In this document: positions 29,058 through 63,911 of the stretch, in pieces
How the letters are laid out: each line of letters opens with the position of its first letter
Numbering within the stretch: position 1 is the first letter of the stretch
Assembly: GCA_963844965.1 (NCBI GenBank)
Contig: CAWJQC010000007.1
Coordinates: forward strand, 267,719 to 331,718
From: an uncultured bacterium
Lineage (GTDB): Bacteria > Patescibacteriota > Minisyncoccia > UBA6257 > 2-01-FULL-56-20
Direction: 5' to 3'
Length of the DNA stretch: 64,000 nucleotides
Position numbers and translations under genes: made by a program
Notes under the pieces: generated by a model
What the model saw: the letters and a program-made list of their open reading frames with translations, nothing else
The model's database searches: none
What the model was told of the DNA's origin: nothing

Positions 29058-29393
29058 ATGACCTTTATCCAACCAAACAAAAACAGCGGCATTTTAAATA
29101 AAATTTTGGCTGTCCTTGTGATCTGCTCGGTTTTTAGTGGCGCGGCGCTAGTTGTGTTGTATAATAGGATAGTCAATTTTGACCACGGCCTTGATAAGGC
29201 GAAAGCCGAGCTGGCTAGCCTGCAATCGCAGAACGCCGACGCTAAAGATAAAATCTTTGAATTGCTTGATACCGACAAGGATTCGGCGGCATTGAAGGAT
29301 TACGGTCTGGTTGAAGATAAAAATCCGCAATATTTAGAAATTTCCTCCAAAGACGAGAATTCACAACAATGGTCATACGCTTCTGGACGTTGA
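29058..29393 (+). CDS. FtsL-like cell division membrane protein
   Basis: 111 aa, single TM (ILAVLVICSVFSGAALVVLY) then a coiled coil. Position between rsmH and ftsI is conserved for ftsL. Confidence 0.45.
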   Translation: MTFIQPNKNSGILNKILAVLVICSVFSGAALVVLYNRIVNFDHGLDKAKAELASLQSQNADAKDKIFELLDTDKDSAALKDYGLVEDKNPQYLEISSKDENSQQWSYASGR

Positions 29394-31004
29394 TTTTGGG
29401 CTTAACCGCGGCCTATTCTTTGCTTTTATTTCGTCTTTACGATCTGCAAGTAGTTAAGGGCGATTATTATCATGCGCGCTCCGAATCGCAATATGTCGCC
29501 CAGGATGCCGCCTCCTCGAACCGAGGCGTTATTTATTTTACGGACAAAAATAACAGCGAAATTCCGGCAACCCTGAACAAGGATTTCCCGATCATATACG
29601 CGGTGCCTAAGGATGTTGAAGATCCATCGGAGGCCGCGAACACTCTTGCCGGGATCCTGAATAAGCCGGTAAGCGATCTCGCCGCGACTCTGTCCAAAAC
29701 CAATGATTCTTACGAAGTTTTACTAAGGAAGGCGGATGCCGACACGGCAAAAGCCGTGGACGATTTGAAAATTAATGGGATTTACGTTGATACTGAAGTC
29801 AGGCGCTATTATCCGTTTAACGACATGGCGTCGCAGGTTTTGGGCTACGTCGGGCCGAAGAGCGACGGTTCGGGGAATAAGGGCTACTATGGCGTGGAAG
29901 GATTTTATGATTCCGAACTCGCGGGCGGGGACGCCGTTGAGGTTGACGGCGCGAGTGGACCTAAATCCGGCGCCGATATCACCCTTACGATTGATCCGAA
30001 CATACAGAGTGAAGCGGAAAAAATTTTAGAGAATTTACTTTCAACTTATAACGCGAGCGGCGGCAGTTTTGTTGTTGAAGATCCGCAAACTGGGAAAATT
30101 TTAGCGATGGGCGGCCTTCCCGATTTTGACCCGAACAACTACGGCAGTGCTCCGATGGCCGATTTTCTGAATCCAACGGTGCAACAGATCTACGAACCAG
30201 GTCTCTGTTTTCAAGGTCATTACGATGGCGACTGGTATTGATTCCGGGAAGATTACTCCGGACACGACTTACTTTGACACGGGCAGCGTTACCCTGAACG
30301 GCAGGACGATACAGAATTACGACCTGAAAACTCATGGTCCTTACGGCAAAGCGACGATGACGAACGTGATAGAGCACTCTATAAACACCGGCGCGGTTTT
30401 CGCGGAGAGGCAAATTGGCAGGGATATTTTTACCGAGTATCTGAACAATTTCGGTTTTGCCGAAAAGACGGGCATAGATTTACCGGGGGAACTAAAGGGA
30501 GATTTAAGGCAACTGTCTCCACAGGCGCGGGATATTGCTTTCGCGACGGCTTCCTATGGCCAAGGAGTAGCCGTGACGCCCATTGAACTCGTGAATGCGT
30601 TCGCGGCCGTCGCGAACGGCGGCAATCTGATGAGGCCATACGTGAACGCCGCCCTGGAACCAAAAGTTATAAGGCGCATAATAACCGAGAGTACTGCGCA
30701 AGCCGTGACCGGAATGATGATTTCCGCGGTGGACAAAGCCGGCATCGCCAGTATCGCGAACTATTCTGTCGCCGGAAAAACGGGTAGTGCCTACATTCCG
30801 GATTTCAAGAATGGCGGCTACACAAATAAACTTATTGACAGCTACGCCGGCTTCGGGCCCACGAGCAACCCGAGGTTCGTTATACTCTTTAAGGTGGATG
30901 ATCTGGACGAATCTCAGCTTGCGGCCACCATCATTGTTCCGGCTTTCCGCGAGATGGCGCAATTTATGTTGAATTACTACAACATAGCGCCGGACAGATT
31001 ATGA
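29369..31004 (+). CDS. ftsI: peptidoglycan D,D-transpeptidase FtsI / PBP (1-nt insertion near 30203 splits the gene at the SXXK active-site region)
   Basis: ORF 29369..30241: TM, PBP dimerisation domain, RRYYPFNDMASQVLGYVG, …IYEPG then garbled. ORF 30225..31004: MATGIDSGKITPD…HSINTG (SxN)…AGKTGSA (KTG). Removing the c in ggtCtctg restores EPGSVFKVITMATGID. Confidence 0.8.
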
Positions 31005-31048
31005 AATGAAGTGGACATTTTGATATTTAAATTTTACATTTAAATCAT

Positions 31049-32336
31049 ATGTCGGATACGAGCTTGCAAACATTGCGCTGGCTTCTGAAAAAATTGGCGC
31101 AACTTACGATTTGGCGCTACCAGCCGGGCGTCATCGGTATTACCGGAAGCGTCGGCAAGACGTCCACGAAACTTGCTCTTAGGGCGGTGCTGGAAAAAGA
31201 GCGGCGCATGCGGGCGTCTTCGGGCAACTTGAACAACGACCTTGGTTTGCCGCTCGCCGTTTTGGGCGGCTGGAGCCAGTCGGACTTGAGGCTGGTGAGC
31301 CGCGAACAGCCGCCACACACGGCGCGCGTCAGTAAGGCGTTTTTTTGGCTGAAGGTTGTTTTGGTTTCGGTTTGGCGGCTGGTTTTCGTGAACAGAAGAA
31401 GCTATCCCGAAATCCTGGTCTTGGAGTACGGTGCCGACCGGCCGGGAGATCTGAAACAGCTTCTTGAGATAGCGCGTCCGAACATAAGCATTATCACCGC
31501 TATCGGCGAGACACCGGTACACGTGGAATTTTTTGCCGGACCGGAAGAGGTCGCGCGGGAAAAAGCGCGGCTGATAGAATGCTTGCCGGTGGCCGGCTTC
31601 GCTGTTCTCAATTATGATGACGAAACGGTTATGGAGTTGAAGGACAGGACGCGCGCGCATATCGCGACATTCGGTTTCGCGAGAGGAGCCGGAGTGCAGG
31701 TCACGCGGTTTGAGAACCGTTCCGAGGGCGGGCGGCCCCTTGGCATCTCTTTCAAACTTGAATATGGAGGAAATTTCGTTCCGGTGAGGATTGACGGCGT
31801 TTTCGGCAAATCGCAGGCCTATGCGGCCGCAGCCGCCGCTTCCATCGGTTTGATTTTCGGCATGAATCTCGTTAAAATTTCCGAAGCACTCAGGGACTAC
31901 AAGCCGGCCGATTCGCGCATGCAGCTTCTCCCAGGCGTTAAGTACGCCTACATTATTGATGACGCTTACAACGCGAGCCCGCTCTCCATGCACGCCGCGC
32001 TTGATGTTCTCCGCGGTCTGCCGGCAAAAAGGAAAATAGCGGTTCTCGGCGACATGCTGGATATTCGGCAAGTACGCTATTGAAGCACATGAGCGGGTGG
32101 GGCGTCTCGTCGCCGGATTCGCGGATATTTTGGTGACCGTGGGACCGAGGGCGAAGTTCATAGCCGAAGCCGCGCGCGAGGCAGGCATGCGCAAGAACAA
32201 TATTTATTCGTTTGACACGGCTGACGAAGCTACGAAGCCAGTTCAGGATTTTATAAGAAAAGGGGATTTGATTTTGGTGAAAGGCTCGCACGCGATGGAG
32301 CTTGAAAAGGTAGTGGAGGAGATTAAGGCCTTCTAG
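31049..32336 (+). CDS. murF: UDP-N-acetylmuramoyl-tripeptide--D-alanyl-D-alanine ligase MurF (1-nt insertion near 32062)
   Basis: GITGSVGKTSTK (Mur ligase P-loop), NLNNDLGLPLAVL, DDAYNASPLSM. Deleting one a in gatatt restores LGDMLDFGKYAIEAHERVGRLVAGFADILVTVG… in frame with ORF 32097..32336. Confidence 0.8.
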
Positions 32337-32438
32337 GTAGTGTAAAGTTTAAAAATCAAAATTTAAAATGACAATGTAAAATTTAAAAATTTAACTGCAA
32401 TTTTACATTTTGATATTTGCATTTTAAATTTTTGCGAT

Positions 32439-32510
32439 GGCGCATTCGTCTAGTGGCCAGGACAGGTGGTTCTCATCCACCAAACAGGGGTTCGATTCCC
32501 CTATGCGCTA
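32439..32510 (+). tRNA. tRNA-Glu (anticodon CUC)
   Basis: Acceptor GGCGCAT/ATGCGCT, D arm TTCGTCTAGTGGCCAGGACA nearly identical to E. coli tRNA-Glu, anticodon stem GGTGG/CCACC with loop TTCTCAT, T arm AGGGG-TTCGATT-CCCCT. An AT-rich palindrome sits upstream (32337-32438). Confidence 0.8.
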
Positions 32511-32641
32511 CATTCAGCTTTCGTTATCGAGGAGACGCGGTTGCGTCCATTTGTGCTACATTTTCCAAAGATGTTGGCAAGTAAATTAGAAGAGAGTAGG
32601 CTATATTGCGGATAGTAAAATAGCTGTTTCGATACAAAAGC

Positions 32642-34782
32642 ATGCTAGAAAAGATAACCTCAATCAAAAATGTGGGTCGGTTCCGCAACAGTCCTGCTAC
32701 TGGTGACGTGACTTTCCGTCGCCACACAATGATATTCGCCGAGAACGGGAGGGGTAAAACAACTCTTTGTGCCATCCTACGCTCGCTGTCCACCAACACA
32801 CCCGCCTTCATCATCGGGCGCAAGACGTATCGGCGGCAACGGTCAGCCGGAAGTCCAACTACTTCTCAACGGCGACTCCGTAACATTTCATGATGGAGTT
32901 GGAGTGCTCCGTTCCCGAACGTGGCGATCTTTGATGGGACCTACGTCAGCGAAAATGTGTTTGCGGGTGACGTGGTTGATACCGAAAACCGACGTAACCT
33001 TTACCGCGTTATTATTGGTGCTCAAGGCGTGGCTCATGCTGGCCGACTCAATGATCTCGATAACCAGATCAGGACTAAAAATAATGAAATCAGGGATGTC
33101 AGAGCGCGGATGCAACCTCATATGCCGCCAGGTACAACAGTTGAAGATTTCATCGCCTTACCCGAAGATGCGACAATCAGTGAGAAGATTTTGGCGAAAG
33201 AACAGGAACTTCAAGCGGTACAACGTGCTGCTCAGTTACAGCAAAAACAGGGTCTAACAGCAGCTGCGGTACCGACCTTTCCCGCATCATTTGCTGAGAC
33301 TCTTGGCAAAACTCTTGAGAATCTTGGGGCAGGCGCCGAGAAGCTTGTCGCCGATCACATTTCACAGCATCAAATGCGAACGCATGGGGAGACTTGGCTG
33401 AGGGATGGCCTCCCTTTTGTGGTCGATGAGTCATGTCCATTCTGCGGGCAATCGCTTGTAGGCGTCGATTTGATTCAGGTATACAAAACTTTTTTCAGCA
33501 ATGAGTACCACGCGCTGCGTAGTGAAGTGATGAAACTAAGTGCGCAGGTTGAGGGTGTGCTCGCGGAGCGTGTATCTGCGGCAATTGAACAAACGCTTTT
33601 ACAGAACAGCAACAACGCCGAGTTCTGGCAACAATATTGTGATTTCGTGCCGCCCGTTCTGCCGGGAGCGGAAAGGCTTGGAGAAATTATCACCGCGCTC
33701 CGGCAATCCGCTCAGTCTCTTTTACAAATAAAGTCGGGGGCACCGCTTGACGCAGTGCCACCGGACGAGGGATTCACTAAATCACTTGTCGCATTCGAGG
33801 CCTTACGCACCTCCCTAGCCAACTATAATGCCGCAGTCGCCGCAGTAAACGTCACAATTGAAGCCAGAAAGCGTGCTACGCAGGCAACGAATGTGCGCGA
33901 AGTTGAAAATGCGGTCGCCAAACTGAAGGGGCAAAAGAATCGCTATACAGTGGGCGTGCAGGAACTTTGCGCGACCGAGACGCGTCTACAGGGTGAAAAG
34001 AAAATTCTCGAAAACGAAAAAGCGCTGGTGCGAGGTCAACTGGACACTCATACGGGACAGGTAATCACCCAATATGGCCAAATCATCAACCGTTTTCTGG
34101 AGCGGATAAATGCGGGATTCAGAATCACTGTGCCATCACACAACTACCGTGGAGGAACGCCGAGTACGAGCTACCAGATTCTTATCAATCAAAATGCGAT
34201 TGATTCTTGGAGACGCAGCGACGCCGACAGACAGACCGAGCTTCAAGAACACTTTGAGTGCTGGCGACAAAAGCACATTGGCTCTCGCATTTTTTCTGGC
34301 ACAACTTGAGCAGGATTCGGATCGTGCTCAAAAAATAGTCGTTTTCGACGATCCTTTCAGCAGTATGGATAGTTTTCGAAGAAATCATACGATCCATCAG
34401 ATATCCAAATGCGGGGAAACATGCGTTCAAGTAGTCCTTCTTTCGCACGAACCATCATTTCTAAAATTGCTGTGGATCGTGGGCACCGGCAGACCGGAAA
34501 ACGCTCCAGCTGGCACGTGTAGGAGAAGAGAACACCGTCATCATTGAATGGGATATCGAGAAAGCGGTCCAGGCACGTTATCGGGCCGATATAGAAGCGT
34601 TGCAAGGATTTTTTTCATTGGGCAAAGGCGATCAGCGGGAGGTGATTCAGAAGCTACGACTGGTGCTTGAGGCGTATTGCCGAACACTCTATCCAACGCT
34701 CATCGGTGAGGATACATTAGGTGTCATTGTAGAAAATCGGCCACGGCAGCTACACAATTCCCCTCCATCTATCGCGGGATGA
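32642..34782 (+). pseudogene. AAA_13-family (ABC/SMC-like, PrrC/RloC-type) ATPase, ~710 aa reading broken by at least 4 frameshifts
   Basis: Walker A FAENGRGKTTLCAILRSL, then (other frames) GGNGQPEVQLLLNGDSVTFHDGVGVL and VAIFDGTYVSENV. Long coiled-coil middle; ABC signature LSAGDKSTLALAFFLAQL; Walker B KIVVFDDPFSSMD; C-terminal ~150 aa continues through ORF 34600..34782. Pseudogene versus indel errors is unresolved. Confidence 0.55.
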
Positions 34783-34789
34783 TCCTCCA

Positions 34790-36239
34790 ATCAATATATT
34801 TATTGCCGTCGCTGTATCATGGTGAAAGCCCCGCTGCTGCGACCGATATATCGACGATGCAGAGCTCCAAGGATATGTCGCACGCACTCTGAAACTCGTT
34901 GGATGTCTTTAGCGCAAACTCCTATTGATAGCATCATACAAAAACTTGCCGGATTATCCGTTCCGAAGCTAGTGAACTTTTATTCGGCCTTCAAGCTTAT
35001 GACCTTATCTCTCACCACAAACTTGCTCTTGATGAGCGAGAGTAATTCTCGTTTCTCGGTGGGATTACCGTCATTTAGTACATATGCTGCGTATCATCTC
35101 GCGTCGAATTCGGCATCATCCTGCTTTATCGCTCTCACACCTAGGAATGATTTCTGGAATTTGGCGACGCGTTTTGTTTCCTCGATAAAACGCTGTTTGA
35201 TATCGGACTCGTTAATATCCAATTTGCCAATTAATCGATAAGCTGTTTAGTGAGCTCATCTTCGCGCATATATTTGTTCTAACAGAACGTATCTCGCGAC
35301 CGACAGCAACCGTAGTAGACGTACTTGGTCGTCGTACCGTCTTTAAGCTTCTTGAATTTCTCCTGTGCGCTAATGGTCGACCCGCAGAGGCCGCAGGTGA
35401 ATAGTTTCGTAAAGGCGAATTCCTTGACCTCAGCATTTCTGAAAAGACTATCTTGCTTTAGTTGTTCCTGGGTTGCTTCGAATATTTCTCTTGTGATGAG
35501 TGCCTGATGTTTCCCGGTGTACCAGTTACCGCTCCCTACGGGGTATTCGAATACACCGTAATAAAAGGTGTTTTGGAGCAGCCGATAAAGATTGCCCAGT
35601 GCCAGATGTTTGTTGCCTGAATTTGTTCGGAAATTAACTTCAAATTTGAGCCAATGAAATAGCTTCCTGCCGCTCCAGCCATTGGCCACCTTCTCAAACA
35701 TCTGTTTAACGACCGGGGCGCGTGCGGGGTCGATTATGACGCTACCTTTACGATCGACACGTTTCTCGGTCAGATATCCAGTAGGAGCCTGCGCGGGCCA
35801 CAGCCCCATTTCGCAGCGCATCCGCAGTCCTCGCTTCACGTTTACACTCTTATTGTCGTTTTCAAGCTTCGCCTGAGAGCATAGGATCATTAGCAAGAAC
35901 TTTTCGTTCGGTGAGTTGGCAAATCTTTGTCCGTAAGTTCGGATCTCATGAGTAACTTCTGATCCATGAGATCCACGAGGATCTGAGGTCGCCCGCGTTC
36001 CTACTTAACCGATCCGGTGCCCATGTGAGAATTCCTGTATATCGGCCGCTTCTAATATCCTTCAAAATTTCCAGAAACACCGACCGCTCGCCTGAGCTTT
36101 TTGCCGAGTGGGATTCCCGCCGGATGTCGACAATTTCCAATGCTTCGCGTTCGGCGATAAGAAGCATCTCCTTAATTTGCGAATCAATGGAGAGAATCTG
36201 TTTTTCTTCCGACTCAGTGCTCTTTCTCGCATAAAGCAC
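34790..36239 (-). pseudogene. decayed large serine recombinase (homolog of the intact copy at 45417..47345)
   Basis: ORF 35946..36239 is the resolvase catalytic N-terminus (MLYARKSTESEEKQILSIDSQ…ILTWAPDRLSRNAGDL). ORF 35279..35896 is the middle (…MILCSQAKLENDNKSVNVKRGLR…KYVYYGC). The C-terminus is recognisable only in shifted frames at 34790-35278. It is divergent from the intact copy and out of frame. Confidence 0.6.
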
Positions 36240-36433
36240 GTATTTGACCTTTACCTCGGGCGGGATTGTTGTAGGGTCCCGCTCCCTGCGCCCCCGTGGT
36301 TTGGGTGGTCATACCACAATGGATGACGCAACCTCGCCAGAGAGTCCAGACCCCCTGAAAGACCCCAAAAGCCCTACCTAAGGCGAGCGCTAAATCGCTA
36401 TAAAAATCGTCTAAATTAAGCTAAAATGGTGCT

Positions 36434-39225
36434 ATGGCACTGAGCTGGAACGAATTCGATCACGAGCTACTGGCTTCGCAAAAGAGTATGAATCGGCGAA
36501 ACGCCGAGATACAAGATTACGCCGATTTTTCGACAGATTTTTTTAATATCTTTGGCGTCCGGCGTCGTTCGGTTTCTATCTATCAAAAAGCGGTCCAAAA
36601 GATAAATGGCAACACGGGATTTATTAATCTTTTTTGGCCGAGTGTATTGCTCGTTGAACATAAGTCGAAAGGAGAAAACCTCGACAGCGCCTTTCTCCAG
36701 GCAAGCGATTACATCTTAGGACTCCCCGAGGAGGAAAGGCCCCGCTACGTAATTGTCTCTGATTTTGAGCAATTCGTTTATATGATCTCGAAACGGAAAG
36801 TGAAAAAACTGAAATTCACGATATCGCGTTATCAAAACTCGCGTCGCATATACGCCTCTTTGGATTTATAGCTGGCTATAAAGTACGTAAATATAAAGAG
36901 GAAGACCCCGTCAATAAAAAGGCGGTGCGTTTGGTCGTGCAGCTATATCAGGCGCTGTCCGATGGAAATTACCCGAAGGAATATCTCGCGCGTCTTATGG
37001 TCCGTTTCGTGTTTCTCTTTCTTCGCAGACGATGCGGGTATTTTCCCAAAACGTGATATTTTCCGTGATTATATGCTTTATCTCACCAAGGAAAATGGTG
37101 AGGATCTCGGTGGGCACTACATCAAATTTTCGAGATTTTGAATACCCGGAGGATAAGCGCCAGCAGGCCCTTTCTGACGATCTAAAAGACTTTCCCGTAT
37201 GTGAATGGGACTCTTTTTAAGGATCCCTTACCGCTGCCGTTTTTCAATAAGGAAATGCGGAGCGAAATTATCCGCGCAGCGCAATTCGATTGGGGCGCTG
37301 TGTCGCCTGCGATCTTCGGTTCGATGTTCCAATTCGTGATGGATGTTGAGGACAACGATATACGGCACGACTTTGGGGCGCATTATACTTCAGAAAAAAA
37401 TATCTTGAAGGTTGTGGACGGCCTCTTTTTGGACGATATAAAAAATGATCTTGAGGCCGCGGGTCAGAATCGGGCAAAACTGAATGCTCTGTGGGAAAAG
37501 ATCGCCGAGATGCGGCTTCTCGACCCCGCCTGTGGTTGTGGGAACTTCCTTGTCGTTGCCTATCGAGAACTCAGGGTTGTCGAGCTTGAAATCATCACAC
37601 GCCTGTTTCGAGATGAGTTAAAGCGGCTAGAGCAACCAACGCTTGGTATCAAAACCGATGTCTCAAAAATCTCTAAGCTTACTCTCGAGCACATGTTTGG
37701 CATAGAGATTCTTTCGTTCCCGGCGGAGATCGCCCGTCTATCGTTGTGGCTCATTGATCATCAGATGAACGTTATGCTTGGAAGTCTATTCGGGGAATAT
37801 TTCGCGAAGCTTCCTCTTAAAGAGCAACCCCATATTTTTCACGGAGATGCGCTTGCTGTTGATTGGGCGCGACTTGCGCCACAAGGAGATAATTTTTCTT
37901 ATATCCTTGGCAATCCACCCTTCATCGCGAAGCAAGATAAAGTCCTGATCAAAAAGCTGATATGCATAGAATATTTGGCGACTTGAAAGGCGCGGGCGAA
38001 TTAGATTATGTAACGGCATGGTATGCAAAGGCGGCCGATTTCATTCAAGGGACCGGAATCCATTGCGCCTTTGTTTCAACCAACTCGATTACCCAGGGAG
38101 AACAAGCTGGAATTTTATGGCCACTATTGCTCCAGAAAGGAGTCCATATCAATTTCGCGCACAGAAACATTTCGTTGGACAAATGAAGCCCCTGGGCGAG
38201 CTGGTGTGCATTGTGTCATCGTCGGTTTCTCGCTTGAAAAATCGGCTAAGCCGCTTTTATGGGACTACGACGATCCAGCCGGAAATCCCCATCTTGTAAA
38301 AGCAAAAAACATTAATCCATATCTTGTCGATGCTGATGATATTGTCGTTTTACCCCGACGGAAGCCGCTCGCCGATGTCCCGGAAGCGCAATTCGGGAGC
38401 ATGCCGAACGACAGCGGATTTTTACTCTTTGATGACGGGGCCAAAAAGGAAGAGTTTTTACTTCAGGAGCCGGGAGCTGAAAAGTTTATCCGCCCGCTCC
38501 TTTCCGCAAAGGAATATCTAAATGGATCTCTGCGATATTGTTTGTGGCTTAAAGAGGCAACACCTCAAGAATTGCGTTCAATGCCGTACCTCATGCGTCG
38601 CGTTGAAGCCGTACGAACGTATCGCGATCTTTCTTCCCGAGCGGCAACTCGCAAACTTGCCCGAACACCCTACCTTTTTGGAGAAGATCGACAACCAGAA
38701 GGTAATTACGTTCTGATCCCTCGGGTGAGTTCTGAAAGGAGGAGATACATTCCATTTTCGTTTTTTGGGCCGGAGTATATCGCTGGTGATACCTGTATCA
38801 TAGTTCCAAATGCCGCTCCTTATCATTTTGGCGTCCTCCAATCCGTAATGCATATGACATGGATGCGTGCAGTGTGTGGACGCCTCGAATCTCGATATCG
38901 CTATTCAAACGAATTAGTTTATAACAATTTTCCGTGGCCGAAGGATGTTTCTAATGAACAACGGGCGTCGATAGAAAAAGCGGTGCAAAATTTATTGGAC
39001 GTTCGCAAGGGATGTCGCGGAACACTTGCGGATCTGTACGATCCAAACGTGATGCCGCGAGAGCTTCTCGAAGCCCATTCGGCACTCGATAAAGCAGTCG
39101 ATAACGCCTATGGCATGTTCCGTGGCTTCCCCTCGGAAGCTGAGCGATTGAAATTTCTGTTTAAATTGTATGAAGACTACCTCCGTGCGGAGCCTACCCA
39201 ATTCGAGCGTAAGGTTAAGAAATGA
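36434..39225 (+). pseudogene. MmeI-family Type IIL restriction-modification enzyme (N-terminal PD-ExK nuclease + gamma-class N6A MTase + TRD), reading broken across at least 5 frames
   Basis: ORF 36434..36871 MALSWNEF…LFWPSVLLVEHKSKGENLD…QASDY is the conserved MmeI N-terminal endonuclease motif. ORF 37201..37986 has AHYTSE, LDPACGCGNFLVVAYRELR, FGIEILSFPAEIARLSLWLIDHQMN, ILGNPPF. ORF 37962..38186 has CAFVSTNSITQGEQ. ORF 38023..39225 has GRLESRYRYSNELVYNNFPWP and the C-terminal LYDPN…LDKAVDNAYG. Error versus decay is unresolved. Confidence 0.75.
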
Positions 39226-39246: not shown

Positions 39247-42112
39247 ATGGAGTACGTCATCCTCGATATCGAAACTACTGGCCTAGATAAGGAACATTCT
39301 TCTATTATCGAGATAGCTGCTATCCTCGTAGAAAAAGGAGGTGTCAAAAATAGTTATAGCTCTTTTGTTCATTATGATGGCGTTCTCTCGGAAACCGTAA
39401 AGCGGCTAACTGGCATCCAAGAAGAAGATACTCAAAAAAGCTCCACTAATAGCTGCTGTCATTTCTGAGTTGAAAAATTTTATTCAGAAGCGACCCGTTG
39501 TTGCTCATAATGGATATTCCTTCGATTTCTTTTTTCTTGAACGGGAGGGGCTGAAACTGGAAGAAAAATATGACTCTATGGAATTTGCCTTTTTTGTCAT
39601 GCCCACGAACGCTCCTGGCCATTCGATCCCTGCGCTCGCGGAACAATTTAAGTTAGGCGAAGCTCCGCATCGGGCGCTCGGGGATTGCAAGCTCGAACTC
39701 ACAATAATCAATCGTCTTCAAAAGGAATATGGAAAGAGAAAGAAATCAAAACGAGAAGTTCTTGCTCATGCCGCAGGAACGACAGGATGGTGGTGGTCCA
39801 ATTTCCTCTCGGGAGAGAAAGCTCCTACTGATCGAATTTCAAGCCTCATTGAGGCTTATGAGCCATACCGCAAAGAATATCGCGGGGCAGAAATGCTGGG
39901 ATTTCAAACAGAAGTGATCGATATTGCAGAGGTTGAAAAATATTTTCAACCAGCGGTAAAAGCGGGCGAGAAAAACGGAGAGGATGATTACTCGGAAGAT
40001 CGACCCGAACAACGAGAGATGGCGAAAATGGTAGCCACGGCGTTTAACAAGCATAAGCATGCGGTCATAGAAGCCGGTACAGGCACCGGAAAATCAAAAG
40101 CATATCTCGTGCCGTCGCTCCTTTTTGGACTCAAGAACCGCATACCGATGATCATATCGACCCATACCAAAGCACTCCAAGATCAGTTATCCCTCAAAGA
40201 AATACCGCACATAAAGAATCTCATTCGGCCCGATCTGCGCGTTGCTGTTCTCAAGGGAAAACAAAATTACGTCTGCTTGGCAAAATTCGAGATTTTTGCC
40301 GAAGAAACTGTGAAGGAGCTTTCGCAACGATCCTTGTATGAGTTTGGTGAATCGGAAACTCGGTATTCAACACGCCTCGCTTATTTATTGCTCTTCTCGT
40401 GGATTCTTGAAGCTGAGTATGGCGATTGGGACGAGCTGCCATACTGGATCAAAGAGCGGATTCCCAAATATATACAAGCCGAAATCTGCAATATCGATGA
40501 GCTTTGCGGCAATGGGACTTGCGACATCTATGACGCAGAAAAATGTTTCCTTGCTAAGGCCAGGCTTCGCGCACGTGATGCCGATCTTGTGATTGTAAAT
40601 CACGCGCTTGCTCTTATGGGCATCATTATTGAGGATAAGACTCCCGAAATACCCAGTGAGCCAGGCGTCGATGTGCCTCCGAGTAAAATGTATAGTCATA
40701 CGGTCTTTCCTAACGAGTCGAAATTCATCGTATTCGACGAGGCCCAACATCTTGAGGACGACGCAACTTCGGCATGGGAGCATGTGCTCTCCCAGAGTTT
40801 CCTACAACTAATTCTCCAGCAACTTTATGGTAAGCGAGGCGTCCAGCAGCTTGTAAAATCTATCGCCAGCAAAAAAACTGATGAACGACTCACGCGGCTT
40901 GCAGCAAATTTTGAGAGTGGCGAAGGCAACATAAAAATCGGCGTCGAGGCGCTTTTTAAAAATATCTTACCGCACCTCGTTTCCGAAAGTGATACACGGG
41001 AAACTTATACTATGCTCGATGAAATTCCCGATACCTCTCCGGAGCGGAAAGCGCTATTCTCTGAGCTACGGAGCTTGCGGCAACGATTTCTTGATATTGC
41101 AAGAATATTAAGTGAATTTTCGGAAGAAACCGAAGTTCCAAGGATGCGCAAAACCCTTTCCGTCCGCTACAACACTCTTCAACGGATCGTGCGCTCATTC
41201 GATGCCATTCTAGAAAACGATAACGTATATGTGAGATACCTCCAGCGATTCGGTTCAAGCGTTGAAATTAAAGCTGCTCCACTCTCGGTCGGTCCATACC
41301 TGAAAGATTATGTCTACGATAATTTTGCTTCGGTAGTTATGACCTCGGCGACACTCACTGTCGGCAAACGGTTCAATTTCTTCGCGAGCCGCTGTGGGAC
41401 ATTATTAGTCGACAAAGAAAAGATTGGGTACAGACTTTTCCATTCCTCCTTCAACTACGAGAAGCAAGTTAAATTTTTTGTTCCGAAAGGAATTAACTAT
41501 AAAGAAGATCGCGAAACCCATCTTGCGAAAAGCACTGAGTTTCTTAAAAAAGCGATTGTCGCCTCCGGCGGAGGCGCGCTCGTGCTTTGCTCAAGCCACG
41601 ATCAGGTCGGAGAACTTTACCAAGGGCTCTCAAAGACACTTTCTGAAAACAATATTTGGCTTCTCCGGCAGCAGAAAGGCATATCAGTAAGCTCCGTCAT
41701 CAGAGATTTTAGAAGGGACGTCGATTCGGTGCTTATTGGCACCGAGACCCTCTGGCAGGGCATCGATGTTCCCGGGGAATCGCTCCGCAGCCTTTTTATT
41801 TATAAGATTCCATATCGAATGCCTGGCCTTCCTCTCATCAAAGCCCGCCGGAAAGAGATTGAAGATAACGAGCGGGATAGCTTTGCCGAATATTATGAAC
41901 CGCTTGCCGCTCTAATTCTCAAGCAGGGATTCGGGCGGTTGATCCGCAAATCCACTGACATCGGTATCGCCGTACTTCTCGATGAAAACTTTCTTAAAAA
42001 GCCGAGCCTTATGAACTCCCTTCCGGAAGGCGTCCACCCTCAAGCTGCCGAGCCGGAAGCTATTTGCGAAGAACTTCATAAATTACACTTGTTGCGACTG
42101 AAGGAGAGTTAG
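39247..42112 (+). CDS. dinG: bifunctional DnaQ-like 3'-5' exonuclease / DinG-family (Rad3-like) ATP-dependent helicase (frameshift in an A6 run at ~39448)
   Basis: ORF 39247..39468 YVILDIETTGL (Exo I). After an A-run the alternative frame gives …VVAHNGYSFDFFFL (Exo II) and HRALGDCK (Exo III) in ORF 39470..42112. Helicase motifs VIEAGTGTGKSKAYLVPSL, VFDEAQHL (DEAH-like), and C-terminal QGFGRLIR. Confidence 0.8.
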
Positions 42113-44081: not shown

Positions 44082-44377
44082 AGTTAGTTCTTCATTTCTA
44101 TCACGTTGAGCAGCTTTTCGCAAAAGATGAAGGGACGTCAGGAACCCTCAAAAAATATTGTCAAACTGGCTCCAAACGTGATACCTTTTAGGTAATTGAA
44201 TATCAGATAGATCGCCTAAACCACGCATTTTGCATGGCATGGCATTACGCAGAATCTCCCTTCCAGATACCAAACGCCACGTTTGGCGACTTCTGGAAGG
44301 GAGTCACTCCGAAAGGGGTGGGGCCGCAAGGCCCAAGCCAGCGTGGCGTTTTGTGTTCTCTATTTTAAAACAAACCC

Positions 44378-45416: not shown

Positions 45417-47345
45417 ATGGCAAAACGAGGAAGACCGCCGAAAAATCAATTGACGGTCGCGCAACCAAAAACCGAATGTGCTCCGGACATGAGTAGTCTC
45501 AATAAGATGCCGAAGTATTGTTTGTACGCGAGGAAGTCATCGGAGAGCGAAGAACGGCAGGCACTCTCCATCGACTCACAGGTCAAGGAGATGTATAAGA
45601 TCGCGGAGCGCGATCATCTCTCGGTCGTTGAAGTACTGACCGAATCACACTCTGCAAAAAGCACCGGATGCCGACCGATCTTTAACCAGATGGTTATAGG
45701 TGTTAAGGATGGCCGCTTTGAGGGCATTCTTACCTGGGCACCGGATCGTCTGAGTCGCAACGCAGGCGACTTGGGCCAGCTGGTCGATCTTATGGACAAC
45801 GGCCATCTTGCGGAAATCCGCACGTTCGGGCAGATATTCAAAAATTCGCCCAACGAAAAATTCTTGCTTATGATTCTCTGCTCACAGGCGAAACTCGAAA
45901 ATGATAACAAGAGCGAGAACGTGAAGCGAGGTCTCCGTGCTGCCGCCGAGCGAGGATATCGCCCAGGCGTCGCACTTGTGGGATACACGAACAGTTATCG
46001 CAGGGATCATCCCGGCGAAGTGGTAATTGATAAACTGCGAGCCCCAATCATAAAGCTTATGTTTGAGAAAGCCGCAAATGGATGGTCAGCGCGGAAGTTG
46101 GTGGTCTGGCTTCGCGGTATCAACTTTACGACGCGCAACGGAACATATCTCTATCTAAGCAGTGTTCATACGCTGTTGCAGAACCACTTTTACTACGGCA
46201 CGTTCGAATACCCTCGGGGCAGCGGCGCATGGCACAAAGGAAATCATAAACCGCTCATTACCAAGGATATGTTCGACCGTGTTCAAGCGCAGATTGAACG
46301 ACGGCGCACCTCGCGCCGCTCGGAGCGGAAATCTTTTGGATTCACCCAGCTCATGCATTGCGGCATCTGTGGCTCCGGCGTTTCCGCCGAAGAAAAATTT
46401 AAGAAACTGGTAGACGGTTCACAGGCCCGCTATGTCTACTACGGATGCAATCGTTCCAAGGGGGTGAAGTGTACCAATACTTACATCCGTGAGGATTTTC
46501 TGGTCCGGCAGTTTGTGAACATCATCGACGAGATATCGCTCGACGAGCTTGGCATACGAAAACTTCTCGGCGAGGAAACTGAGCGTGTCTTTCGGTTTCA
46601 CAATGATGTCATGGGCGATCCTAACGCTTCGGAAACTCAAGAGAAAAAAGATATCGACATTAAAACCTACGCTAAATATCTACTCGCAAGAGGCAACGCC
46701 GAAGAAAAAAGATTACTACTATGCAACATTCAGAACCGACTGATCCTTCGGGATAAAGCCGTATATCTGGAAGAAGTAGGCGGTCTTACCTGGAAGGACT
46801 ATATTGGCCATATGAGAAAGTGCGCGAACTGCGGATCAAAAAACGTGAACGAGAGCGGACCGTATGCGAACTGGAAATTCGGCGATACGCCAATCGACGA
46901 CACGCCGCGGATCGTGTATTTCGCTTGTCTCGACTGTGAGCAATCGTGGAAGCAGGTCAACGAGAATATCTTGCGATTAATGCGCGAGTATGTGGTGGTG
47001 CCAGAGGGAAACGGGGCGTGGATTAAAACACCTGGCGGCTCGGAGTTTTTCGCGACGCCGTCTTTCGCCGCGCGGTTCAGAGACACGGTGGAGATAGACG
47101 GCAAAAAAGTGCCACCGAAAAAAATTCTCGGGGAAATGCTGTACTGGCCAGACAGGAACGCTTACGAGACGACGATCGAATATGACGACGGAAGCGAACG
47201 GACATTTGATATCCCAAGTCTTCGTGGCAGGAACAATACAGAAGAAGGCATGAAGCCGATCAGCAATAAGGATGGTCTTATGGAGTACAAAGAAGGTAAG
47301 ATGCAAACTTATTTCGGTCGCGGTCTCCAATATGACGGCCGATAA
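45417..47345 (+). CDS. large serine recombinase (phage-type serine integrase), intact
   Basis: 642 aa: resolvase domain (LYARKSSESEERQALSIDSQ…ILTWAPDRLSRNAGDL), recombinase domain, zinc ribbon (CGICGS…YYGCNRSKGVKC), coiled coil and a second C4 motif. Confidence 0.85.
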   Translation: MAKRGRPPKNQLTVAQPKTECAPDMSSLNKMPKYCLYARKSSESEERQALSIDSQVKEMYKIAERDHLSVVEVLTESHSAKSTGCRPIFNQMVIGVKDGRFEGILTWAPDRLSRNAGDLGQLVDLMDNGHLAEIRTFGQIFKNSPNEKFLLMILCSQAKLENDNKSENVKRGLRAAAERGYRPGVALVGYTNSYRRDHPGEVVIDKLRAPIIKLMFEKAANGWSARKLVVWLRGINFTTRNGTYLYLSSVHTLLQNHFYYGTFEYPRGSGAWHKGNHKPLITKDMFDRVQAQIERRRTSRRSERKSFGFTQLMHCGICGSGVSAEEKFKKLVDGSQARYVYYGCNRSKGVKCTNTYIREDFLVRQFVNIIDEISLDELGIRKLLGEETERVFRFHNDVMGDPNASETQEKKDIDIKTYAKYLLARGNAEEKRLLLCNIQNRLILRDKAVYLEEVGGLTWKDYIGHMRKCANCGSKNVNESGPYANWKFGDTPIDDTPRIVYFACLDCEQSWKQVNENILRLMREYVVVPEGNGAWIKTPGGSEFFATPSFAARFRDTVEIDGKKVPPKKILGEMLYWPDRNAYETTIEYDDGSERTFDIPSLRGRNNTEEGMKPISNKDGLMEYKEGKMQTYFGRGLQYDGR

Positions 47346-57934: not shown

Positions 57935-57998
57935 TTAGCGGGGTGTGTTCTGGCACACCTCCTTTTGTTTTTAGCCAAGATATTCTATCATATTAAGT

Positions 57999-58334
57999 GG
58001 AGCCGGCTGTAGAGCACTCAAACAATTCCCCTTTGGGTGGTTGCCAGTAGAGCACTCATTCATAACAAACAGAATTGGAGGTCACCACTGGCAACCACCC
58101 AGGGCAGAATTGTCCCGCAACTCTCTGCGAGCCGCCAAGGTGAGCAGCTAGAGTTGGCGCGATCCCGCTTAATCTCCGATGCATGCAGACAACTGGTTTT
58201 CATCGCAGAGAGAACGGGATCTACGCCAATCTAACCTCAGGACTTTGTCCTTCGGAGATTGGGCGGGAGAGGTCACCACAGCCGCTCCGCCGAGAACCTT
58301 TCTGGGTTCTGGGCGGAGCGGCTGTTCGTGTTTC
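57999..58334 (+). ncRNA. candidate structured RNA / long structured leader upstream of murB
   Basis: Perfect 14-bp stem gggtggttgccagt/actggcaaccaccc; perfect 13-bp stem cagccgctccgcc/ggcggagcggctg ending 15 nt before the murB ATG; long-range complement aactctctgcgag/ctcgcagagag; direct repeat gtagagcactca x2. No credible ORF. Confidence 0.3.
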
Positions 58335-59261: not shown

Positions 59262-59293
59262 AAATAAAAAGCGAGGAGGGCAACATTTCCTCT

Positions 59294-59365
59294 GTCATGC
59301 TGAGCGGAGCGAAGCATCTCATAGCCGCACATAACATGGAGATCCTTCGCAAAGCTCAGGATGAC
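59294..59365. repeat. inverted pair of the GTCATCCTGAGCG.AGCGAAG.ATCTC repeat unit (two arms separated by 18 bp), murB-hpf intergenic
   Basis: gtcatgctgagcggagcgaagcatctc …18 nt… gagatccttcgcaaagctcaggatgac. Both arms match the single unit inside argF at 21281-21307. Confidence 0.6.
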
Positions 59366-59431
59366 CGGACGAAATTTTCGAGTAGCCTCAACAACCTTTG
59401 CGGAAAATTTATTTGCAGTATAATACCTTCT

Positions 59432-59770
59432 ATGGAACTTAATATCATCGGTAAAAATTTGGATTTGACGCCAAGCATAAAGGCCTTTGCGGAGAAAAAG
59501 TTACTGCCCCTCGCGAAGTTTTTGAAACGATTTGAGGAAGAAGGCAGCGTCTCGGTGCGGCTGGAATTAGCTCGCATTACGCAGCATCATAGGCGCGGCA
59601 ATGTTTTCTGGGCGGCGGCCGACCTCAAATTACCGGGCAAGCTTTTGCGGGCGGAAACGGAAGCGGGCGACGCGCGAGCCGCGATAGACGGCATAAAGGA
59701 CGAGCTACGCATAGAGATAGAAAAATATAAAACGAAGTTTTTGAAGCCGCAAAGAGGTGCAGGGAAATAA
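59432..59770 (+). CDS. hpf: ribosome hibernation promoting factor (HPF/RaiA, sigma-54 modulation protein family)
   Basis: MELNIIGKNLDLTPSIKAFAEKKL…VSVRLE…GNVFWAAADLKLPGKLLRAETEAGDARAAIDGIKDELRIEIEKYK is the HPF short-form pattern. The upstream part of ORF 59297..59770 is repeat-derived. Confidence 0.8.
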   Translation: MELNIIGKNLDLTPSIKAFAEKKLLPLAKFLKRFEEEGSVSVRLELARITQHHRRGNVFWAAADLKLPGKLLRAETEAGDARAAIDGIKDELRIEIEKYKTKFLKPQRGAGK

Positions 59771-59799
59771 AAAAGGGGCCGTCTGATGGGACGGCCTCG

Positions 59800-60340
59800 A
59801 GGGAACTGGAACTGGGACAAGTACTGGCATAGCCGGAGTCGTGAGCAGAGATTTCAGCCATTCCCACGCCTTGGATTTGGCGTAGGGCGGCCTGTCTATG
59901 CTGACGAGGTACGATTCCACTAAAACGGCCAGCGCGAATGGCTGAAAGATAAGCCATTGGCCAAGCGCAAATGGCTTATAAGATGCGTCCCACCAAAGCG
60001 TAAGTGTCAGGGAAAATGGGCAAAAAACGACAAGGGACCATGAAAACCGGCGATCTCTTCGCAGGCGTATGTCCAGTTGTAAATTTTTCGCGCCTCTTTG
60101 CTGTTCCGCCGACTTTTTGTGTTCTATGTCGCTGATCCTGTAAAAAGCTGCCCACGTAAACAGCGCGACCATGGGGTTTACAAAACCTATAATCGCGTAC
60201 CAGCGGCTATTGACGGCGAGGATTATCAGTGCAACCGCCGCGTAAGCGCAAAATAACTTCCAGATTCCGCGTGCCATCTGAAAATTGTCTTTGCCCGTGA
60301 GCCAGTCGAACCACTTGCTTGCGCGCTCTGCGAGCCGCAA
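59800..60340 (-). CDS. hypothetical membrane protein
   Basis: Four hydrophobic helices. The 3' end of the ORF overlaps hpf, so the true stop is uncertain. Confidence 0.3.
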
Positions 60341-60507
60341 GCAAGCCCGAATCTAATTTGTCAAACATAAGTCACCTTCCTTATTTCGATAGAGATAGGG
60401 GACTTTACCTGAGTGTATTATAGCATTAAATAAATTAATTTGTCAAGTTCAAAAAAGAGCCATTTTTTCTGGATTTATCGCACAAAAACCGTTATACTAC
60501 GGAATAC

Positions 60508-63128
60508 ATGTTCGATTTTATCAAGCAATATTTTCATAAGCGCTCGCTCGCGGCGCTGGAGGAAAAAGTTCTGGAAATCAACGAACTTGAACCGGAAATA
60601 CAGAAACTGACCGACGAAGAACTCAAGGCGGCGAGTTTGGATTTGAAGTCAAAAATCCGCGAGGGGATGACGCTTGACGAAGCCCTGCCGCGGGCTTTTG
60701 CTTTGGTCCGCGAAGCGGCGAAGCGTACGCTCGGCCAGCGGCCGTTTGACGTCCAGTTATTGGGCGGCATGGTGTTGCATCAGGGAGCGATCGCCGAAAT
60801 GGTGACGGGTGAAGGGAAAACACTTGCCGCCGTCGCGCCCGCTTATTTGAACGCCTTAAGCGGGAACGGCACGCACGTTGTCACTGTTAACGAATATCTT
60901 GCCCGCCGCGACGCAGTGTGGATGGGGCAGATATACCGCGCGCTCGGTCTCACGGTCGCGTGCCTCGTGCCGAACGCGGCGTTCATGTACGATCCCGAGT
61001 GGAAAATTCCCGAGGGCGCGGAAGATACTTATAGACAAAGAGCGCGATACGACGGGAGCGTTTTTGGTCCAGCAGGAGTTTTTGAAACCTGTATCGCGCC
61101 GCGAGGCGTATCTCGCCGACATTACTTACGGCACGAACCACGAATTCGGCTTCGATTATTTGAGGGATAATCTGGCTTACCGGTTTGAAGATTGCGTTCA
61201 GCGCGAGCTTAACTACGCCATCGTTGACGAGGTGGACAGCATTCTAATAGACGAGGCGCGGACGCCGCTTATCATCGCGGCGCCGGATGTGCAGTCAAGC
61301 GATTATTACAAGGCCTTCGCGAGAATCGCGACAAAATTTGGAGAAGGAGAAGGACTATGCCATTGACGAAAAATTGAAAACAGCAAGCATCACGGAAAAC
61401 GGCATTGACAAGGTGGAGAAAATAATCGGCGTGAAAAATCTTTACGCGCCGGAAAACATCCGTCTCGTCCATTATTTGGAGGAAAGTTTGAAAGCGAAAG
61501 CCCTTTTCCAGCGCGACAAGGATTATGTAGTGAAGAACGGAGAGGTCATCATCGTTGACGAATTTACGGGACGCATGCTTCACGGCCGGCGCTATCAGGG
61601 CGGCCTGCATCAGGCGATCGAGGCTAAAGAAGGAGTTCTCGTCAAGGAGGAATCGCGGACTTACGCGAAAATTTCAATCCAGAACTATTTCAGGATGTAT
61701 AAAAAAATCGCCGGCATGACCGGCACGGCGCAGACATCCGCGGAGGAATTTTTCAAGGTTTACAAACTGGAAGTCGTCAGCATCCCGACGAACAAGCCGT
61801 TAGTACGGGAAAGATTTGAACGACCTCGATATATAAGAAGTTTCAAAGCAAAATTCGAGGCGGTGGTCAAGCGAAGTGGCGGAGCGGCAGAAAATCGGCC
61901 AGCCGGTGCTTTTGGGAACGACCTCGATCGCAAAGAACGAGATGTTTTCCGCGGCGCTTTCGAGCGCGGGCGTCGAAGCACGAGGTTTTGAACGCGAAGA
62001 ACAACGAGCGCGAGGGCGCGATCATTGCGCAGGCGGGGCGTCCCGGCGCCGTGACGGTTGCGACGAATATGGCGGGCCGCGGCGTGGACATAATCCTGGC
62101 GGCAACCCGCCGGAACCCGAGGAAGCCGGAAAGGTGCGAGAAGCGGGGGGACTGCACGTTATCGGCACCGAACGGCACGAAGCGCGCCGCATTGATAATC
62201 AGCTTCGCGGCCGCGCCGGGCGGCAGGGCGATCCGGGCTCCTCGCAATTTTTCCTTTCGCTTGAGGACGATCTTCTGCGGATATTCGGCGGCGACCGGGT
62301 TAAAAATCTGATGGAGCGGTTTGATCTGCCGGATGACGAGCCGATCACAGTTCGGATTTATTTCAAAGGCCGTCGCGCAGGCGCAGGCAAAAGTGGAAGG
62401 CGCGAATTTTGACCTGCGGAAACATTTGCTGGAATACGACGATGTGTTGAACAAGCAGCGGACGGCGGTTTACAAGAGGCGGCTGCAGATTTTGCAGAGT
62501 ATGAATAAGGAAGTTTTGGCCGGGATCGTTTATGAAGCGGCGTCGGCCTGCTTGGACAATATTTTGAGCCAGGGTGCGGCGGAGTTGCCGCCGGATGCCG
62601 AGGGTAACGCGCCCAAGGCTCCGGATATCAAAAAAATGTTTGAGGAAACCGGGATTGTAAATAAAAATTTCCAATTTCCAATTTCCAATTTTCAAGACGC
62701 AACGTCGGAGGACTTGAAGGAATTTCTGAAAAAACGCAGTGCTGACGTCGCCGAAGACCCACAGACGCTGAATCGTGCTCTCGGCATTTTGGATATGCTT
62801 TGGATGAACCATTTGGAGGATTTGGAGGCGCTAAGCGAGTCGGTTGGACTCCGCGCTTACGGCCAAAAGGACCCGCTTGTGGAGTATCGCCACGAGGCGC
62901 ACCACCTTTTCAAGAATTTTTGGGACAATTTCAACGGCTGGATTTTTTCCAATATTTTCCGCCTTGCGGGAAATACGCAAACAACCGTGAAAGCGGGAAA
63001 TACTTCGCAGAATTTCGCGAAAGTATCAGCAGTTTCGCAAGGTTCTTGCGCCGACCGATAAGGTCGGGCGGAATGACCCCTGCCCGTGCGGTAGCGGAAA
63101 GAAATACAAGAAATGTCACGGGGCGTGA
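60508..63128 (+). CDS. secA: preprotein translocase ATPase SecA (reading broken by at least 6 single-base indels; C-terminal zinc-finger present)
   Basis: Consecutive SecA blocks in shifting frames: [38 protein letters not shown]; [23 protein letters not shown]…[20 protein letters not shown]; EKDYAIDEK…[12 protein letters not shown]…[15 protein letters not shown]; [10 protein letters not shown]…[23 protein letters not shown]…[35 protein letters not shown]; [19 protein letters not shown]; terminal [21 protein letters not shown]. Contains a (tttccaat)x3 in-frame repeat. Confidence 0.85.
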
Positions 63129-63189
63129 GGGTAAGAAAAATGCCGCTGGGTAAACCATGCGGCGGAAATAATCTTGTGCTACAGGATCG

Positions 63190-63444
63190 CTAACGAGAGA
63201 CGCTAACCGCTTCCGGAACTTTCTTGGCCTCTTCTACGGGCCAGGAACCAGGCGAAGGGGTTTCGTGAGCGTGCAATGGGCATCCAAGTGCTTTGATATT
63301 CGGATACGCTGGACAGACGCAGTCGAACTGAAGCTTGAGGTGACCGAAAGAAAGAACTATTTTCCGTGCAAAACCCAAAGAATTAACTTCCGTATCTGAT
63401 AAATGAAAGCCAAGCGGTTGAAGTTCTTTTTCAGCATATGTCAT
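63190..63444 (-). CDS. hypothetical protein
   Basis: 84 aa ORF with no motif. Confidence 0.2.
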   Translation of the reverse strand: MTYAEKELQPLGFHLSDTEVNSLGFARKIVLSFGHLKLQFDCVCPAYPNIKALGCPLHAHETPSPGSWPVEEAKKVPEAVSVSR

Positions 63445-63583
63445 TTCTTACCTCTCGTGATAAGGTTAATTCAAAAAGAATAGTACCAAAGCCATATGCG
63501 GTAGTCAATAATCCTTATATACGCAGAAGTCAATCAAAAAATGTCCCGATTTGCTTTAATGCCGAAAAAAGATTTAAACAATA

Positions 63584-63911
63584 ATCATATGACCATAGAT
63601 GATTTTGACAAAATTGAGCTGCGGGTCGCGTAAGGTTCTCGCGGCGGAGCGCATAGCTGGATCGGAAAAGTTGCTTAAACTCCAGATAAGTTTGGGCGAC
63701 GAGACGCGGCAGCTTGTTGCCGGCGTGGGCAAAGTTTACGAGCCGGAGGCGCTGGTTGGAAAGGAAATCGCAATCGTGGCGAACATGGGAACCGCGCGCG
63801 CTGATGGGTCTGGAATCGAATGGTATGCTGCTCGCGGCGCACGATGAAGACGGCAAGCCCGCGGTTCTGACGGTTGAACGGGAAGTTCCTCCCGGCTCGC
63901 GGATAACATGA
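63584..63911 (+). CDS. csaA: tRNA-binding domain protein (CsaA/Trbp111-like), with a 1-nt insertion at ~63631 and another shift near 63800
   Basis: MTIDDFDKIELRVA then (shifted) KVLAAERIAGSEKLLKLQISLGDETRQLVAGVGKVYEPEALVGKEIAIVANMG… then (shifted) ESNGMLLAAHDEDGKPAVLTV. Together these form the complete Trbp111/CsaA tRNA-binding OB domain. Confidence 0.7.

Follow-up and report, generated by a model that had tools for sequence, protein, structure and literature searches.

Clustered single-base indels splitting twelve genes of a Patescibacteria contig are very probably consensus errors

The analysed stretch of DNA (64 kb, hereafter the window) holds about 55–60 genes, of which 12 carry at least 29 single-base indels in total (Table 1). 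In every broken pair, the abutting fragments match consecutive parts of one protein family, far above chance. Breaks of this type, with no other damage to the genes, are observed directly. Single-base edits bring back full-length homologue matches for secA and purD and single domain matches for ftsI, murF, the exonuclease-DinG fusion and the HD hydrolase. All of the sites listed in a first-pass annotation, made from the letters alone, proved to be real frame breaks within recognisable genes, and the breaks of the MmeI-type and AAA_13 genes are additional to that list. The window also holds an IS3-family transposase with a frame change of its own (see below).

Table 1. Genes with frame breaks in the 64-kb window, and the IS3-family transposase
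Feature	Position	Strand	Break and basis
HD-domain hydrolase gene	2067..2722	-	base missing ~2391; HD_4 profile, translations
PiT phosphate transporter gene	6988..8000	-	extra base ~7950; translations
Surface protein gene (Ig-like repeats, PG_binding_1 C-terminus)	8751..10773	+	extra base ~10325-10345
IS3-family transposase orfA/orfB	12662..13755	-	AAAAAAAG slippery site ~13447-13454 at frame junction
Small SAM-dependent methyltransferase gene	20274..20800	+	extra base ~20718; translations, Pfam
purD-like gene (GARS)	26001..27319	+	base missing ~26867-26869 (GGT-ACC); GARS_A and GARS_C on separate ORFs
ftsI (PBP transpeptidase)	29369..31004	+	extra C at 30203 (CCAGGTcTCTGTTTTC)
murF	31049..32336	+	extra base 32065/32066; Mur_ligase_C split, sequence context
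AAA_13-family ATPase gene	32642..34900 (end approximate)	+	at least 4 breaks; Pfam AAA_13, translations
AAA_13 breaks	~32830 extra, ~32910 missing, ~34190 extra, ~34470 extra	+	read by eye, ~50 nt precision
MmeI-type restriction-modification gene	36430..39225	+	5 breaks; three-frame query vs PDB 5HR4, Pfam
MmeI-type breaks	~36800 missing, ~37035 extra, ~37150 missing, ~37935 missing, ~38170 extra	+	vs 5HR4
Exonuclease-DinG helicase fusion gene	39247..42112	+	extra A in A6 run 39434-39439
secA	60508..63128	+	10 single-base indels; corrected product 869 aa
secA extra bases	~61027, 61331, 61809, 61828, 61838, 61872, 61975, 62347, 63047	+	frameshift-aware alignment
secA missing base	~62096	+	frameshift-aware alignment
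csaA-like (Trbp111-like) tRNA-binding protein gene	63589..63911	+	extra bases ~63631, ~63788; three-frame translations

To call the breaks in secA, between 6 and 12 intact SecA proteins were aligned to the DNA in a frameshift-aware manner. Seven were robust with every reference and ten were obtained with the closer references; the seven positions proposed by the first-pass annotation all match alignment calls, and the triplet at 61809, 61828 and 61838 was absent from its list. The corrected product has no in-frame stops, shares 81% identity over its full length with the intact SecA (865 aa) of a syntenic relative (L085), and retains 184 of the 188 columns invariant among 12 intact SecAs, thereby equalling intact SecAs in a leave-one-out test. 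The C-terminal zinc finger, described earlier as encoded, is indeed present. The long segments past each break show 73–93% identity in every case; together with the retained invariant columns, this bears out the earlier remark that conservation persists beyond the breaks. Four extra bases are crowded into the 63 nt from 61809 to 61872, with the corrected reading still matching the homologues; such a series is implausible as real mutation. Moreover, a broken secA fragment (61287–61991) has an exact copy in the public protein database (P0001, from a 331,718-bp contig), which places the errors in the deposited assembly.

The product of the csaA-like gene matches Trbp111 (1PYB) in the PDB and, more weakly, CsaA (2NZH). 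Its breaks are also supported by alignment to the tRNA_bind protein of L085; the extra base at 63631, noted earlier in what was called csaA, was thus recovered by both translations and alignment, while a second one at ~63788 had been missed. In ftsI, the extra C divides the SXXK motif (YEPG|SVFK), as had been claimed. The Pfam Transpeptidase profile is split into positions 1–43 and 44–286 in the DNA as written and gives a single 1–286 match (221.6 bits) without the extra base. The Mur_ligase_C profile of murF likewise falls into 2–50 and 42–127 as written and runs over 2–127 once corrected. The first-pass annotation had placed an extra A at ~32062 of murF; the extra base is real, but it is a T or C at 32065/32066. 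Further upstream of secA, near the 3′ end of the HPF gene, a T5 run (~59738) may mark another break; the tail there is poorly conserved, and it was therefore not counted.

The remaining genes on the earlier list also hold up. The purD-like gene, with its missing base at 26869, aligns to a 430-aa homologue (L004) with a single break, 67% identity and no stops. The HD_4 profile covers positions 1–63 alone and 1–85 after stitching of the HD hydrolase frames, in line with the translations. In the PiT gene, frame reading puts the first transmembrane helix (MLSYSLLLVIGIILVA) in another frame, and the match to the PHO4 profile starts ahead of every ATG, at residue 8 of the open frame. The methyltransferase translation continues across its break as ...KELKPGA | KVISNIYRFPG...YLYQK*. 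The surface protein has overlapping ORFs in adjacent frames meeting at ~10335, the second of which encodes PG_binding_1. No homologue spans this junction, which makes it the weakest case.

Three broken genes lie in a row downstream of murF. AAA_13 profile positions 12–43, 206–486 and 497–577 fall on separate pieces of the ATPase gene, the last of them in a different frame, and further breaks toward its 3′ end are likely. In the MmeI-type gene, residues 1–130, 130–488, 488–568 and 567–916 are encoded in alternating frames when compared with 5HR4 (737.6 bits in total). The RNase_T profile of the exonuclease-DinG fusion covers 1–67 in a 73-aa ORF and 1–160 once corrected. Its break, the sole clear homopolymer case, does lie in an A6 run as the first-pass annotation had it, with the run about 10 nt away from the proposed ~39448.

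Extra bases outnumber missing ones by 22 to 7 (binomial p = 0.008), the reverse of the bias to deletions in the pseudogenes and mutation spectra of bacteria (PMC2817411, PMC6054270). The indels form marked clusters along the window (variance/mean 5.8, p = 3e-12), with 12 of them in a hot zone at 61.0–63.8 kb, at least 10 in another at 32.8–39.5 kb and none between 39.5 and 61 kb. They had been described as pervasive, which does not hold in the sense of a uniform spread. No long repeats coinciding with the hot zones were found, and repeats were rejected as their cause. A link to homopolymers, raised earlier as a point to check, did not appear at the secA and csaA-like sites: only 2 of the 12 are near a run of three or more, against 31% of background positions. 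This argues against the classic signature of Nanopore R9, 454 or Ion Torrent reads, not against error in general. Nor did any shared sequence or methylation motif at these 12 sites survive multiple testing; TATA had a raw p of 0.001 in 93 tests, and a single TATA accounts for two of the three sites that have it.

A comparison with a related genome had also been suggested, and the syntenic relative L085 carries intact copies. Its gene block TIM-SIMPL-GtrA-MurB-HPF-SecA...tRNA_bind has the same order as in the window and is fully intact; proteins P0127–P0132 are intact, and the orthologous secA and tRNA_bind are single ORFs. A search with the full-length corrected SecA yielded nothing closer than 81%, and a scan of genome contigs gave nothing closer than 74%. 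The 80 secA loci have hardly any gene order in common with the window; for its other genes, only L004 (for purD) and L085 proved useful as references. In relatives whose contigs bear Flye-style names (contig_N; ENA assemblies ERZ25039466 and ERZ25039529), secA is broken elsewhere, mostly by extra bases; these were retrieved by a fragment-length query and are thus a biased sample that favours broken genes. Our guess is that the two assemblies belong to the Microflora Danica long-read project. For the same reason of ascertainment, a secA-specific hot spot common to four related contigs was dropped as a candidate. All four have a break within SecA residues 495–504 of the alignment reference (L003), near TCCGCGGCG, which gives a weak hint of context dependence.

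Real frameshifts in a decaying genome, of the kind seen in Mycobacterium leprae and in recent endosymbionts, would make the broken genes genuine pseudogenes. Twelve disrupted genes, some of them hit repeatedly, and the host-dependent, reduced genomes of CPR bacteria would suit such decay, and pseudogene-rich genomes (Mycobacterium leprae, Sodalis, leaf-nodule Burkholderia) do contain many frameshifted genes, as here. However, in real pseudogenes substitutions and stop codons build up and deletions predominate, and essential genes are left unaffected (PMC6054270, PMC2817411); none of this holds in the window: secA and purD lack in-frame stops, the invariant residues of SecA are kept, the MmeI-type gene aligns strongly to 5HR4 in all frames, the spectrum is insertion-biased against the known deletion bias (PMC2817411), and the essential secA, ftsI and murF are among the broken genes. 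For secA to gain ten frameshifts but no comparable base substitutions, indels would have to arise far more often than substitutions, and in relatives the copies are intact within the same order of genes. Decay is thus very unlikely. A mixture, in which most breaks are errors and some are genuine inactivations or strain variants, would most likely concern the MmeI-type and AAA_13 genes in the island after tRNA-Glu. These non-essential defence genes sit in a lower-GC block that begins at the tRNA-Glu and contains recombinases, the block is one of the two hot zones, and defence genes are often inactivated. Nevertheless, the MmeI-type gene aligns to residues 1–916 of 5HR4 in the correct frames without stops, the type and spacing of its indels are like those of secA, and the remaining island (39.5–54 kb) is clean, so we regard such a mixture as improbable.

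Programmed ribosomal frameshifting or transcriptional slippage might also yield full-length proteins from the unaltered sequence. The one canonical slippery motif of the window lies in the IS3 transposase, where it is normal. The exonuclease-DinG break in its A run resembles the rescue in endosymbionts, where, as Tamas et al. reportedly described in 2008, transcriptional slippage restores genes frameshifted at poly(A) tracts; this run, however, has only six A, and the other sites lie outside A tracts. The 12 secA and csaA-like sites have no motif in common and avoid homopolymers, a 0-frame stop stands at the shift only at the first csaA-like site (one example), and the shift sites are not conserved, the orthologues being ordinary ORFs. 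Moreover, we know of no system that decodes ten shifts in one bacterial gene. Recoding is accordingly given almost no weight, and it is just as hard to believe that the indels are real in a living CPR bacterium which still makes SecA by way of some novel correction step at motif-less sites, for instance ribosomal frameshifting on a wide scale or RNA editing that deletes bases.

Consensus errors in the metagenome assembly, an artefact to be corrected rather than a sign of gene decay or other biology, are therefore very probably what the indels represent. Since the single-copy, essential secA, ftsI and murF are hit, no decay surrounds the breaks, relatives lack them, and the indels are biased to insertions, an assembly or sequencing error is the best explanation. 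The first-pass annotation had preferred such errors to gene decay, and the lack of substitutional decay, the insertion bias, the broken essential genes and the intact L085 copies all support it. The window is part of a public metagenome-assembled contig of a Patescibacteria (CPR) bacterium, whose consensus would retain single-base indel errors, chiefly spurious extra bases. Each error would shift the frame and lead gene callers to divide one real gene into several pieces, with the genes being presumably intact in the organism itself. The errors would concentrate at ~32.8–39.5 kb and from 61.0 kb to the window end; these hot zones suggest a poorer consensus, resulting, e.g., from low local read depth, an unpolished draft or mixed strains.

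We infer that the assembly is probably a long-read one. The link to Flye comes from the length of the 331,718-bp contig at NCBI and ENA and from the Flye-named relatives, which the fragment-sized query favours as carriers of broken genes. Published Nanopore-only metagenome pipelines report gene-breaking indels for bins below ~40-fold coverage (PMC9262707; PMC12313526). IDEEL-type tests of assemblies built from long reads (Nanopore or PacBio CLR) show a similar picture: single-base indel errors cut conserved genes into neighbouring pieces, hit essential and other genes alike, and increase in metagenome bins of low coverage (PMC9262707; PMC12313526; PMC12007338). In two respects the window differs: the textbook Nanopore error is a miscalled homopolymer length, whereas here mostly extra bases outside homopolymers are seen, and the indels are strongly clustered rather than spread along the contig.

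The IS3-family element, with HTH_Tnp_1 on orfA and rve on orfB, has to be kept apart from these cases. Its orfA/orfB switch at ~13.45 kb, with the AAAAAAAG site, fits exactly the programmed −1 frameshifting of IS3-family transposases; it is natural, not an error, and must stay uncorrected. The remaining breaks (at least 29), in comparison, lie at no slippery site, and orthologues do not have them. Frame changes in the window are accordingly not all errors.

An automatic frameshift corrector would damage this natural frame change, and insertions outside homopolymers escape homopolymer-aware fixes. No new biology is implied; the value of the finding lies in curation, and the two hot zones deserve read-level inspection. 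As the sequence stands, about one in five genes of the window would be annotated wrongly, either as a pseudogene or as fragments, and inferences from this genome of lost functions in secretion, cell-wall synthesis, purine synthesis, phosphate uptake and defence would be wrong.

Intact SecA proteins were aligned to positions 60400-63200 with our own frameshift-tolerant protein-to-DNA aligner, whereby seven breaks of the secA frame were common to six references and ten were found with closer ones, among them that of L085 (NCBI GCA_041480965.1), a syntenic relative. All seven secA positions named in the first-pass annotation are among the ten. After restoring the frame by one-base edits, the protein was 81% identical to that of L085 over the whole length with zero in-frame stops, and its best matches were intact SecAs of 864-889 aa (76-81% identity). 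Identity was 0.73-0.93 in each long segment regardless of frame, and the corrected reading still matched homologues at 61809-61872, where four extra bases fall within 63 nt. Moreover, 184 of the 188 columns invariant in 12 intact SecAs were retained, one of the four lost being the codon with the missing base; in a leave-one-out control, intact SecAs scored 93.5-99.5%.

Overall, at least 29 breaks were counted in 12 genes out of roughly 55-60. The other breaks reported at first pass were also recovered, at the exact base in ftsI, where removal of the extra C rejoined the split profile into a single Transpeptidase match (1-286, 221.6 bits). The csaA-like gene holds a second extra base, and two further broken genes were absent from the first-pass list. 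One base may also be missing at ~59738, where a T5 run lies close to the 3' end of the HPF (S30AE) gene; this site was left out of the count, the alignment being weak there and the tail poorly conserved. The surface protein gene also contains a 249-nt tandem duplication (9625-10122, 79% identical) of repeated Ig-like domains.

Frame changes in the window, with the positions reported in the first-pass annotation
Gene	Position	First-pass position	Change	Basis
secA	~61027, 61331, 61809, 61828, 61838, 61872, 61975, 62347, 63047	~61040, ~61340, ~61870, ~61990, ~62360, ~63060	extra base	frameshift-aware alignment
secA	~62096 (first pass ~62100)		missing base	frameshift-aware alignment
secA near TCCGCGGCG	window ~61940-61980 (takes in 61975 above); relatives' loci L001 ~3105, L082 ~2357, L083 ~3832		extra base	
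ftsI	30203, inside YEPG/SVFK	30203	extra C	Transpeptidase profile split 1-43 and 44-286; sequence context
murF	32065/6	~32062	extra base	Mur_ligase_C back to 2-127 on correction
exo-DinG	A6 run 39434-39439	~39448		RNase_T back to 1-160 on correction
HD hydrolase	~2391	~2372		
purD	26869	~26870	one missing base	alignment to 430-aa homologue, no stops
PiT	~7950	~7950		read from translations
Methyltransferase	~20718	~20720		read from translations
Surface protein	~10335	~10330		read from translations
csaA-like	63631, ~63788	63631	two extra bases	best PDB match Trbp111 (tRNA-binding protein)
MmeI-type	36430-39225	not listed	five frame changes	PDB 5HR4 (MmeI structure)
AAA_13 ATPase	32642-~34900	not listed	at least 4 frame changes	
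IS3-family transposase	12662-13755 (minus)		orfA/orfB junction, ~13447-13454	orfA HTH_Tnp_1, orfB rve; slippery site AAAAAAAG

The breaks were described at first pass as pervasive. Many genes are indeed broken, but the density is very uneven (variance/mean = 5.8 in 4-kb bins, p = 3e-12): 12 breaks lie in 61.0-63.8 kb, at least 10 in 32.8-39.5 kb and ~7 in the first 32.1 kb, with none in 39.5-61 kb, where open ORFs of 2.6, 1.9, 1.5, 1.4 and 1.3 kb are found. Low local depth, unpolished draft stretches and mixed strains are candidate causes; long repeats did not match the break pattern. Clustering in homopolymers, proposed as a check at first pass, was not seen for the 12 secA and csaA-like indels: only two are found 3 nt or less from a run of at least 3, against 31% of background positions, none is near a run of at least 4, and no 3- or 4-mer was significantly enriched. 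Several of the insertions are unambiguous, as they fall between unlike bases (for example GCG-a-CAA, GTC-g-AAG and GCG-t-AAG). These 12 indels are therefore not homopolymer errors.

The 234-aa ORF at 61287-61991 is present verbatim in a public protein collection (P0001), its source being a single 331,718-bp contig (NCBI, ENA); thus, the frame breaks belong to the deposited assembly and were visible to its gene caller. The closest relatives of the SecA and its neighbours are metagenome-assembled Patescibacteria/CPR genomes. In L085 the block TIM, SIMPL, GtrA, MurB, HPF, SecA ... tRNA_bind is intact, as are the five genes upstream of secA in the window. Three related contigs with Flye-style names (ENA ERZ25039529 and ERZ25039466) also carry broken secA genes, at other positions and mostly with extra bases. 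Since the fragment-sized query favoured fragment-length matches, the sample is biased; all it can tell is that genes are often broken up in this way in those assemblies, and that the breaks of the window were not inherited. All four broken secA genes have an extra base in one ~10-codon stretch near TCCGCGGCG (residues 495-504 of the reference SecA L003), which may reflect a context-dependent consensus error, the sample being small and biased (n=4). In Nanopore-only metagenomes, short-read polishing was needed for bins below ~40-fold coverage (PMC9262707), and after Flye assembly with one Medaka round low-coverage bins lost coding density through errors (PMC12313526).

The conservation left after frame correction contradicts a genuinely decaying genome. 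Base substitutions are commoner than indels in bacterial mutation spectra, so ten frameshifts truly fixed in secA should be accompanied by many substitutions, stop codons included. The indel spectrum is insertion-heavy (22 extra versus 7 missing bases, p = 0.008), whereas bacterial pseudogenes show a deletion bias (PMC2817411, PMC6054270); moreover, secA, ftsI and murF are essential. Programmed recoding is likewise contradicted, as the sites share no motif and the orthologues are ordinary ORFs. Less likely than error throughout, a small number of the defence-gene indels may be real; against this, the alignment of the MmeI-type gene to 5HR4 still extends across residues 1-916. Most probably the breaks are a familiar type of assembly artefact, in line with the first-pass reading of indel error rather than decay.

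The first hot zone sits within a lower-GC block (46-47%, the window being ~50%) spanning 32.6-~54 kb after tRNA-Glu(ctc) (32439-32511), which directly follows murF. With its AAA_13 ATPase, MmeI-type, exo-DinG, DUF2779, DUF5655, N6_N4 methylase and RusA genes, a large serine recombinase (45417-47345) and a minus-strand recombinase remnant (35.3-36.3 kb), this block probably represents an integrated island or prophage. An inverted match (35823-36047 versus 45711-45937; 60-125 nt, 77%) joins the minus-strand ORFs to the serine recombinase gene in its 5' part, pointing to another recombinase gene, perhaps a broken one. Two plus-strand matches to the LOOT RNA family (RF03000, gathering score 46.4) at 22006-22129 and 44213-44334 (84.1 and 58.4 bits) lie just upstream of a methylase-Mrr fusion (22189) and a DUF5655 gene (44369), respectively. 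An AT-rich 90-nt direct repeat with internal symmetry (23889-23978 and 28966-29055, 84% identical) is intergenic, before rplJ and before ftsL-ftsI; both copies may belong to one regulatory or repeat element.

The IS3 orfA/orfB switch of frame is real biology: programmed -1 frameshifting is natural there, and an automatic frameshift corrector would wrongly repair it. For the remaining breaks, the value of the finding is in the curation of this genome only.
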